Origin: Okamejei kenojei
Lineage: Eukaryota
Assembly: GCA_035221665.1 (NCBI GenBank)
Contig: CM069135.1
Location: forward strand, 63,922,001 to 63,986,000
Length of the DNA stretch: 64,000 nucleotides
Reading direction: 5' to 3'
The translations under genes and the position numbers were made by a program. The notes under the pieces are model-generated. The model worked only from the letters and a program-made list of their open reading frames with translations. It was not told the DNA's origin and did not search any database. Of this stretch, positions 33,096 to 36,397 are shown piece by piece. Positions within the stretch are counted from its first letter, which is position 1, and every line of letters begins with the position of its first letter.

Positions 33096-33941
33096 CTAAA
33101 TGCCATTATTTTATCTGCCTCCACCACTGCCCTCCAGGCACTCACCACTCTGCGTGGACACCTGGCCCCGCATATCTCCTTGATAGTTTGCACCTCTCGC
33201 CTTAAAGCTATGCCCTCGTCTTTGACATTTCCACCCACGGAAACCATTTGTTACTATCTACTCTTTTTTGTGCCTCTCATGATTTTATATACTTCTACCA
33301 TTTTCCTCTCAACCTCCGATGTTCCAGATGAGATACTGTCTGCATCATTCAGGACCTTTTAATCGTTTCTATTGGGCCTCATTCTAACAGTTGCAGAAGG
33401 CCTCAGACAGAGGTCTGAGTGGGAATGGATTAAGAATTAGTGTAGGAAGGAACTACAGATGCTGGTTCAAACCAAAGACAGACACAAAAAGTTGGAGCAA
33501 CTCAGCGGGACAGGCAGCATCCCTGGAGAGAAGGAACAGGCGACGCCTCGGGTCGAGACCTTGTCTTAAAGGTAGGAAACAGGTTGCATTAGTAGAGGGT
33601 TTTTATCAGACTGGTGATCTGTTACAAGTGGTGTTCCACAGTAATCAGTGCTGAGTTTGTGGACATCACTAAAATTGATGGGGTGGAAATGGACAGTGAA
33701 GGTGGTTATAACAGGATTTTGATTAATGTGTTTTGTAAGACAAACCAGGATAGGGCTTACCAGGGCTCTCGCTTAACCTTTTTTCCCTATTGTGAGCCGG
33801 GCAACCTTGACAGCTTTAGGTTGCCAAATGACAGTTTAGGTGGTCATTTAAGACGGTTTGCATGATGCGTTTGATAATGTGCTCGGACGAAGTGCATAGT
33901 TACCAGTCAGAATTATGCTCAATGAAGCATTCACATATTAT

Positions 33942-34159
33942 GTTCAAGAAGGAACTGCAGATGCTGGAAAATCTAAGTTACACAAAAGTGCTGGAGAAAC
34001 TCAGCGGGTGCAGCAGCATCAGCGGAGCGAAGGAAATAGGCAACATTTCAGGCCGAAATCCATCAGTCTGAAGAAGGGTTTTGGCCCAAAAACGTTGCCC
34101 ATTTCCTTCGCTGCATAGATGCTGCCGCATCCACTGAGTTTCTCCAGCACTTTTGTCCA
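33942..34159. mobile_element. PLE-derived palindromic element with a 14-bp TSD
   Basis: CATTCACATATTAT at 33928-33941 and 34160-34173; arms ACAAAAGTGCTGGAGAAACTCAG / CTGAGTTTCTCCAGCACTTTTGT; central CTGAAGAAGGG. Confidence 0.9.
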
Positions 34160-34719
34160 CATTCACATATTATTTCTGCTTGCAGCAAAATTATAATGCA
34201 ATATCTCAACTCTTTTTACATATTGCAATGAATGCAATTTCTATTAGTTCTTTCCACTTCCAAACAAAAATGTGGTTGGATTAGTCAGCAAATGATCAAC
34301 CTGTGTCAATAAATCCTGGACCATGCACACTACAGATTGATGCAAGCATGTTTTCTGTGAAGGACCGAAAATTACCATGACAAGGGTTGTTATTTCTATT
34401 GGCACAGAAACACTCTGGCTTCCCACATAATTTATCCATAACAAACTATACAGGTTGCAAGGAAAATTCTAAAGGCATTTTATGATAATAGCTGTTAAAA
34501 CCGACTATACCCATCTGACAGGTTAAACATTACACTAACTTACAAGAGATGGCCAAAGGACATAACTGCAGCAAATGTTCTTTAGGTAATATGTTTAAAG
34601 ATGTCAAAACAAATAATAATATTGGGAATTAAAACACATTTGATTGCATTCCGTTATCAAACATATTCAATGTTCGCTCTGAAGACCATGAATCACAATA
34701 GGGTCAGGGGGTGTGTGAA

Positions 34720-35585
34720 TCAGTGCGGGGTGGATAGATGGCGCGGGGGGGGGGGGGGGGGGGGATTGAGAAGGCAATCGGTGCGGAATGGACGGATTGA
34801 GGGAGATGAATTAGTACGTATTGGTTGGAGTATGTAAAATTGTGAGGGGAGAGCACGGGGGATGTCAGTGGTGTTGAATGGGGGATCAGTACAGGATGGA
34901 TGGGGGGGATCAGTACAGGGTGAAGGGGGGTAGACCAAAATGCTGGAGAAATTCAGCGGGTGAGGCAGCATCTATGGAGCTAAGGAAATAGGCAACGTTT
35001 CGGGTTGAGACCCTTCTTCAGACTGTTCCCCCCATTCTTCTTGAATGGGGGGATCAGTACAGGATAGATGAGGGGGGGGTGGGATCAGCACAGGATGAAT
35101 GGGGGGGATCAGTACAGGATGAATGGGGTGGGGGGGGGGGGTCTGTGCAGGATGAATGGGAGCTCACTACAGGATGAATGAGGGGTTCAGTATAGGATGA
35201 ATGGGGTATCAGTACGGGATGAATGAGGGGATCAGTACAGGATGCATGAGGGGATCAGTACAGGATGAATGGGTGATCAGTAAAAGATGAATGGGGAGAT
35301 CACTATAGGATGGATGGGGGTTTGGTGGAGGGTAAATGGAAGGTGGGTCGGTACGGGATGAATGGGTGGATCAGTGCAGTATAAATGGGGGGGAGAAGTG
35401 CAGAATGGATGGGAAGGGGGGTCAGTACAGGATGAATTGGGGGACCAGTGTAGGATGGATGGGGGGTGGCAGGAGAATCAATGTGAGGTGGGTAGGGTGA
35501 TGAATAGATTGGGGGGGGGGGGGTAAGAAAGGTGATGTCAGTGAGGACTGAATAGAGGAGGGAATGGGGATCAGTGCGGGATGGG
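34720..35585. repeat. G-rich minisatellite, ~20-bp unit GGGGATCAGTACAGGATGAAT
   Basis: More than 20 diverged copies with variable G runs; interrupted by a PLE end (~34930-35025); followed by (GA)n at ~35631-35658. Confidence 0.9.
34994..35021 (-). ncRNA. Minimal (PLE-type) hammerhead ribozyme core
   Basis: Reverse complement CUGAAGA-AGGGUCUCAACCC-GAAACGUU: conserved CUGANGA and GAAA boxes, stem II, ACGU palindrome as stem III. Confidence 0.6.
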
Positions 35586-35625
35586 GAAGAGGGGTCCCAG
35601 GATAAGATGGGTGGAGGGGGGGGAG

Positions 35626-35658
<33 letters not shown>

Positions 35659-35791
35659 CAGAGGAGATGGGGAGGGAGGAAGGTCAGCGCTCCCTGTCCA
35701 ACGCCAAAGGGGGAGGTGGGTGGGAATTTGTTGCTACCGCCTCCCCATCTCCGCCAGCCGACAGGTAGGTGCGGGGCCGAGCGGTGCAGCT

Positions 35792-35819
35792 CAAAGATCC
35801 TATAGCTATAGGATCTTTA
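35792..35819. mobile_element. 28-bp TIR-only remnant with an 8-bp TSD
   Basis: GTGCAGCT|CAAAGATCCTATAG CTATAGGATCTTTA|GTGCAGCT; the inner 26 bp form a perfect palindrome. Confidence 0.8.
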
Positions 35820-36397
35820 GTGCAGCTGCTTCAGACGGCGGAAGGAAGCCTCTGCCTCCCTCTTTCCCTCCCGGACTCGGCGTGCGAGACAGGCTGTATT
35901 GAAAGCGTCGTTAACGGGTTTGCAGGCAGTGGCCTTTATCAGGGCGACAGCGGCTGCTGCCTGTAAATCAAAGGCTACTGCTGCAAATCCACCAACTGCG
36001 CTTTCAAAACATCCCCTCTCGCACGCCGCGGCCGGGAGGGAGGGAGGGAGTGAGGTCTCCTTCCGCCGGGCGGGGTGCGGGAGAAGGAGGCGGTAGAGCC
36101 GCTGTCGCGGCCGCTGCTGCCGCTGTTCGGGGCCCGTCATTCGCTCCGACCCTTCGTCACCACGCACCTGGTATCTTTGCCCCGCAATCAAAGATACTAG
36201 AGGAATACAGCCGCCGCCATCGCTCCTATTCTCCAGAGATGCTGCCTGACCCACGGAGTTACTTCAGTTTTTTATAAACCAGTATTTGCTTGCCAAGCTG
36301 GGCAAAATGAGTCGGCGCTTAGGTTGCCCGGCTGCACTTTGGGTGGTCATTGGCACCCAGTCAACCACTAATTTCGAGCCCTATTTACACAGTAAAC

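Follow-up and report, generated by a model that had tools for sequence, protein, structure and literature searches.

The 64,000-nucleotide stretch of Okamejei kenojei DNA analysed here (the window) contains a 28-bp palindrome that is likely to be a donor-site excision scar, in which two P-superfamily termini are fused inside an 8-bp target-site duplication (TSD). We regard the classification of the palindrome as a P-type excision scar as very probable. The explanation as a whole, namely a P excision scar inherited as a passenger within a multicopy host transposon and left by a cut with a stagger of about 20–21 nt, appears probable. The window locus itself is ordinary: it is one among hundreds of passenger copies and bears no sign of function.

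Positions 35784–35827 of the window consist of GTGCAGCT, then CAAAGATCCTATAG and CTATAGGATCTTTA head to head, then GTGCAGCT again, which is a 28-bp near-perfect palindrome between 8-bp direct repeats. The inner 26 bp are perfect (arm of 13), and the outermost pair is C/A instead of C/G; the other copies of the 28-mer have G as the last base, where the window has A. The core of the 28-mer is the longest among seven perfect palindromes with arms of at least 7 in the 64-kb window, the others having arms of 7–8. The features discussed below are as follows.

33761..36383, + strand: non-autonomous host DNA transposon with CAGGGCTC ends and nested SINE-like pieces (30 filled and 6 empty copies align)
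35784..35791, + strand: left 8-bp TSD copy, GTGCAGCT, from the sequence (single copy in 6 of 100 host copies)
35792..35806, + strand: first 15 nt of one P-element end, CAAAGATCCTATAGC (the same as the termini of MITEs L002, L007 and L013, and as the L108 terminus with substitutions)
35805..35819, − strand: first 15 nt of the other P-element end, last base G>A (an enumerated microhomology junction of the consensus ends)
35820..35827, + strand: right 8-bp TSD copy, from the sequence

The dinucleotide GC at 35805–35806 is common to both P-element ends and constitutes a 2-bp microhomology. The initial annotation had described two 14-bp inverted ends abutting head to head; the fused termini stand, but they are better read as 15 + 15 nt overlapping on this GC. 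The palindrome with its 8-bp TSD, reported there as a structure consisting of terminal inverted repeats (TIRs) only, is real and far above chance. The 13-mer AAAGATCCTATAG has 4014 + 3965 exact matches (7,979) in the 2.76-Gb genome, compared with 19 + 20 (39) for the reversed control, and the exact 26-mer core occurs at 396 loci genome-wide versus 0 for its control. A 22-bp form is found at 434 loci.

Among the first 30 loci of the arm matches, the arms are mostly ends of longer elements. Both ends are in view in three of them, which are MITEs of 335, 385 and 395 bp with 8-bp TSDs. The two ends of the family are CAAAGATCCTATAGCGGAGCAAGATAG and CAAAGATCCTATAGCGAGCAAGATAG (majority of five copies each); they take the form CAAAGATCCTATAGCG(G)AGCAAGAT, with 8-bp TSDs and a target preference of STnnnnAS. 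In MITEs and long copies alike, the terminal inverted repeats begin with CA and finish with TG (CAAAG...CTTTG). The 14-mer was thus correctly taken for an element terminus, being found at thousands of sites at the ends of MITEs and long copies. In the genome, 39 matches to the RNase H domain of P transposase were obtained, 20 of which were taken as 10-kb loci. One of them, L108, is a transposase-bearing copy with 4,892 bp between two family ends, which match the MITE ends, and a TSD of ctttgaac/ctttcaac. Its domain order is THAP (PF05485), Tnp_P_element HTH (PF12017; 20.6 bits, below its cut-off of 23), RNaseH_N (PF21787), GBD (PF21788) and RNaseH_C (PF21789), and its frames are broken. The sole PDB match of L108 is the Drosophila P transposase 6p5a (E 1e-12), and two L108 aspartates align to its D230 and D303. 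The motif of the third catalytic residue, the presumed equivalent of E531 of the Drosophila P transposase, has E in 13 of the 14 copies where it was found and Q in L108; L108 was read in frame and is broken, and the other transposase copies were inspected for motifs only. Nine frames of L108 contain P-type domains only and no hAT or Merlin domains, the long copies having come by way of the P-domain search. The expectation that long copies encode a THAP-domain P transposase, rather than a hAT or Merlin enzyme, is thereby borne out by the Pfam domains and the 6p5a match of L108. A second parent of this family (family A), L374/L375, is partial, with a right end and transposase; no left end was found for it within 10 kb. 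On the sequences of one complete and one partial parent, the arm family is assigned to the P superfamily. The remaining 19 transposase loci are mostly sister families with related ends (CAAAGATTATAGAG, CAAAGATCATAGAG and CAAAGATACTAGAG), and one sister-family copy (L097/L237) is complete, about 10 kb long, with a perfect TSD.

Several further arrangements were observed among these elements. The family-B autonomous elements L091, L094, L095, L097, L106 and L107 contain, in their 3′ part, a family-A left end with the shared flank ccactaagag, a case of one P family carried by another. In the 5′ intron region of family-B elements (L092, L094, L097, L106 and L107) there are sister-family remnants of 33–38 bp (CAAAGATTATAGAG and CAAAGATACTAGAG) with 8-bp TSDs, in which as much as about 20 nt of each end is likewise retained. 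At the 5′ end of the parent (L108:6260–6345), three consecutive remnants have the target GTTCCGCC in common, and L353 has two in tandem at one target; their sequences suggest repeated insertion and excision at one site. Finally, six P-transposase copies (L068, L071, L074, L076, L081 and L088) lie within about 150 kb at 44.7–44.9 Mb of C22 in G000, and the identical end flanks of two of them point to a likely segmental duplication.

The palindrome of the window resides in a host element whose existence, proposed in the initial annotation, is confirmed by its CAGGGCTC terminal repeats and 5-bp flanking repeat (cttac/tttac in the window). Host copies measure 1.5–2.6 kb, and a TSD of about 5 bp is present in all four copies with both ends (two exact, one mismatched, one shifted by a base). 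A TSD of this length makes a hAT5-like element one candidate for the host. No Pfam match was obtained in six frames of its 3′ part, and a captured gene was discarded as a candidate on that result. All 15 sampled exact 28-mers share the flanks of the window copy, that is, one site in the host, and 14 of 15 sampled exact 22-mers sit at two other repeated host sites; these are passengers, and the counts of 396 and 434 were therefore rejected as numbers of independent events. At the host site, 94 of the first 100 of 315 matches carry the remnant or a decayed form, and the other six are empty with a single GTGCAGCT, the state that the initial annotation had proposed to look for in other host copies. 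Its reading of the locus as a record of transposon activity reduces to one old event that was inherited, and the window copy has almost certainly been inherited as a passenger of the multicopy host transposon. No full-length P was found at the window's host site in the 11 matches read, nor at the second host site among 81 matches.

A tree was built from 37 host copies after the insert had been taken out; it groups four of the empties (88/93, unstarred), places one within the filled copies and leaves one on a long branch. A single ancestral clade of all six empties was rejected (p-AU 2e-5, with two long-branch rows), though four may form one. At least one of the six empties, the nested L229, is a secondary loss in which the remnant and one TSD copy disappeared, and secondary deletions are seen in several host copies. 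Thus, an empty host lineage probably exists, and precise secondary loss also happens. These data bear on the idea that the palindrome is a motif intrinsic to the host or a structure due to chance, to which we assign a negligible probability. The high share of host sites carrying the remnant or a decayed form is what such a motif would produce, but the four grouped empties speak against it, as does the fact that, at thousands of sites, the arms form the termini of an unrelated family. It is refuted by the 13-mer counts, the empty host sites and the TSD census described below.

Other structures occur within this and another host repeat. At 36167–36206 of the window the host contains sister-P-family ends, with a right end at 36167–36179, a 9-bp spacer and then the 18 bp CAAAGATACTAGAGGAAT; these 18 bp are present in the window, L202, L211, L212, L217, L220, L222 and L224 and absent from other host copies. 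A head-to-head SINE-like pair with 80-nt arms (83%) is located at 33982–34156, and a 70-nt inverted duplication at 35856–36050 varies among host copies. Three P scars lie next to one another in the other host repeat (L259–L288). Its CTGCAGAA site has variants of 33 and 38 bp, set apart by a GGAGC-like duplication, which reflects either secondary slippage or separate repair events.

Independent remnants were sought with a pattern that excluded the 22- and 28-bp forms and gave 669 strand matches. The first 100 of these represent 89 loci in 40 flank clusters, 31 of them single-copy, which extrapolates to about 200 single-copy remnant sites genome-wide. Pooling of loci gave 206 distinct remnants in 72 flank clusters, of which 59 are single-copy; the largest cluster (102) over-merges several host sites, making the clustering conservative. 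The samples were chosen by exact-match patterns and taken in positional order. The independent remnants are 22–57 bp long, and such a class of short remnants therefore exists beside MITEs and full-length parents, as the initial annotation had anticipated. The 8-bp TSD length given there also holds, since a TSD of this length, with no more than one mismatch, flanks the remnant at 51 of the 59 single-copy sites (32 perfect); at any other length from 2 to 12, a TSD is seen at no more than one of the 59 sites, and shuffled pairs give a mean of 0.24. The remnant target is the palindromic STnnnnAS, with T at position 2 in 83% (symmetrised, 32 perfect TSDs).

Two loci could be followed into related species. 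At L357, species G and C lack exactly 35 = 27 + 8 bp, whereas the remnant is spanned by contigs of B and F; at L161, species F, G and D lack 41 = 33 + 8 bp, whereas B carries the remnant. The remnants at both loci are thereby confirmed as genuine insertions. The orthologous empty and remnant states indicate that P activity spanned these species splits. A full element was not found at orthologous L357 or L161 in four related-species runs each, two loci being too few to establish absence, and the host-site and orthologous checks, covering few loci, gave no single locus with both the full element and the remnant.

To predict junction sizes, the microhomologies between the two consensus ends were enumerated. 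The predicted products include 12, 22 and 28 bp, the window 28-mer being the 15 + 15 product on GC, and all eight predicted detectable classes keeping 16–20 nt (23, 24, 26, 27, 30, 32, 33 and 37 bp) were seen. A simple deletion between the consensus ends, allowing no more than one substitution, accounts for 23 of the 31 single-copy remnants. A 2-bp microhomology is present in 12 of these 23 simple junctions versus 6% of possible products. The eight that do not fit include symmetric 38-mers, templated fillers and one long remnant; the symmetric 38-mers correspond to 20 + 20 − 2 and fit parents such as L108 with two long-type ends. The remnants thus have the makeup of a Drosophila-type footprint, with both TIRs partly kept inside intact TSDs and joined on microhomology or filler, and the same junction types are listed among the products recovered after Drosophila P excision (PMC2895639, Table 1).

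The same 27-bp remnant is found at 17 unrelated sites and the same 33-bp remnant at 16, every one of them inside a separate TSD, and both orthologous loci show empty or remnant states only. These observations could be explained if the P transposase moved the 22–38-bp units intact, as micro-MITEs that would rank with the smallest transposable units known. We judge this improbable. The recurrent forms coincide exactly with the junctions that microhomology between the end sequences predicts, and many one-off filler junctions occur alongside them. Furthermore, roughly 800 passenger 22- and 28-mers have seeded few new sites, as the sampled copies at host sites attest, an argument that would be weakened if host amplification came after P activity, as it may have. 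Drosophila P requires internal transposase-binding sites (PMC7776569, Figure 4), which would be missing from the present units. The initial annotation had left the choice between a scar and a minimal MITE of a P/THAP9-like family; the P family stands and the scar is favoured, the choice between the two being decided indirectly.

The amount of each end that is kept has a sharp upper limit. Across the genome, 264 strand matches agree with the end as far as AGC (position 19 or 20) and no further, whereas in 27 the agreement goes on with A, four of these reaching CAAGA; remnants running beyond 22 nt number four genome-wide. No exact product of the 2–4-bp microhomologies needing 22–28 nt was found among the 27, with two loci coming near. 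The A at position 21 is kept as a 1-bp microhomology at several sites, and one end of a longer subfamily keeps 21–22 nt. We fitted a crude likelihood to the 23 simple junctions, with a fixed tail length, a per-base microhomology weight, a trimming penalty and a 3% long tail; lnL peaks at −86.5/−86.4 for 20/21 nt and falls to −153.4 at 17 and −103.7 at 25. The Drosophila geometry of at most 17 nt per end, invoked in the initial annotation, does not fit, the limit here being about 20–21 nt; judged by their sequences, the remnants work like a P footprint without the geometry of the fly. The sharp stop and the likelihood peak together suggest that the enzyme cut further in than the 17 nt of the fly, and a stagger of 20–21 nt (range 20–22) is moderately favoured by these junctions over 17 nt.

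A nick defined by motif, always after GAGC, was rejected or is at best weak. In the subfamily with CGGAGGGAGC ends, none of the 39 matches reaches GGAGGGAGC, and one reaches CGGAGGGA, at 21–22 nt. This subfamily may simply have been excised rarely. We speculate, by analogy with the strand-transfer complex of the fly, that the internal AAGAT could re-pair with the terminal ATCTT.

The retention limit could also have arisen from a standard 17-nt stagger, if the extra 3–4 nt were copied from the sister chromatid by short, aborted gap-repair synthesis followed by end joining. The stagger of 17 nt determined for Drosophila P is the sole measured P stagger in the material available (PMC7776569), and repair of P excision often proceeds by incomplete synthesis and then end joining (PMC2895639). 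The four longer remnants show that such synthesis took place, the 24- and 27-bp classes are compatible with 17 nt, and GC at 19–20 could be a favoured stop. Nevertheless, in the commonest classes (31, 32, 33, 37 and 38 bp) one side or both must contain 18–21 nt of genuine element sequence, and synthesis would be expected to continue to the stronger microhomologies that follow (3 bp at 24–25, 4 bp at 26–27), which are unused. The fit at 17 nt is 67 lnL units worse even with the 3% long tail allowed. We hold this route to be unlikely, while granting it an appreciable minority share of the probability. Deletion independent of transposase, by hairpin formation or replication slippage between the inverted ends of a MITE, is very unlikely. 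Palindromes are indeed unstable here, as the loss at L229 and the secondary deletions in several host copies illustrate; however, the imperfect inverted repeat goes past 27 nt, so that there is no reason for a stop at 20–21, slippage deletes between direct repeats and would not keep both ends, and the templated fillers point to break repair.

Under the excision-scar reading, a P family with ends of the form given above inserted with 8-bp TSDs. A long-staggered cut by the transposase would then have released the element and left each end behind on the chromosome as a 3′ single-stranded copy, with tails of about 20–21 nt (range 20–22) rather than 17. The junctions suggest that these tails were end-joined on microhomologies of 1–6 bp, sometimes with templated filler; the scar in the window would have been joined on the GC at positions 14–15, giving 15 + 15 − 2 = 28 bp. 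The host lineage carries this scar in hundreds of copies.

Footprints that keep TIRs are known in the fly from the repair products of Drosophila P{wa} excision (Chan, Yu, McVey 2010, PMC2895639). The products resemble those described here in having the 8-bp TSD on both sides, head-to-head TIR pieces, a capped retained length, and 1–3-bp microhomology, blunt and templated-insertion junctions. They differ in their limit of 17 nt per end versus about 20–21 nt here, and in being experimental products whereas ours are fixed germline fossils; moreover, a 6-bp palindromic microhomology, CTATAG (the 22-bp class), is available here, unlike in P{wa}. In vertebrates, zebrafish Pdre2/zfTHAP9 demonstrates a P element that was once mobile (Kutnowski et al. 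2024, PMC10983969). Pdre2 shares the CA terminus, 8-bp TSD, internally deleted copies, and THAP and P transposase domains with the present family, but its TIR, CATACCTGTCAAC, is unrelated and its copies number about 50 versus thousands of ends here (PMC10983969). The excision of Pdre2 is described with larger flanking deletions, and the consulted part of that paper states neither a stagger length nor genomic TIR-only scars (PMC10983969). The Drosophila P target motif is ATRGTCCGGACWAT, with the core GTCCGGAC (Linheiro and Bergman 2008, PMC2577343). As here, the 8-bp core is palindromic with a G/C-T start and an A-C/G end; however, the central four bases of our targets are not GC-rich and the outer AT...AT described for Drosophila P is absent (PMC2577343).

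A literature search of incomplete coverage returned no vertebrate P-type TIR-only scars and no P stagger other than 17 nt. What is new here is the P parent, the census of independent sites, the orthologous empty sites and the 20–21-nt limit. P transposition is characterised by a long staggered cut, which, in the parts of the literature examined, is given for the Drosophila enzyme only. It seems reasonably likely from our data that the stagger of the P superfamily is not fixed at 17 nt, and that this vertebrate family nicked the non-transferred strand 20–21 nt inside each end. The scars offer a sequence-based estimate of the stagger for a vertebrate P family, together with a precise prediction for cleavage assays. 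Marks of 22–40 bp, which repeat annotation likely misses, could reveal P activity in other genomes, and the scars record germline end-joining choices in a lineage without repair genetics. If the interpretation is true, some hundreds of scars preserve the cut geometry and end-joining signature of a cartilaginous-fish germline, and the cut geometry of extinct P/THAP9-like enzymes would be readable from genomes.
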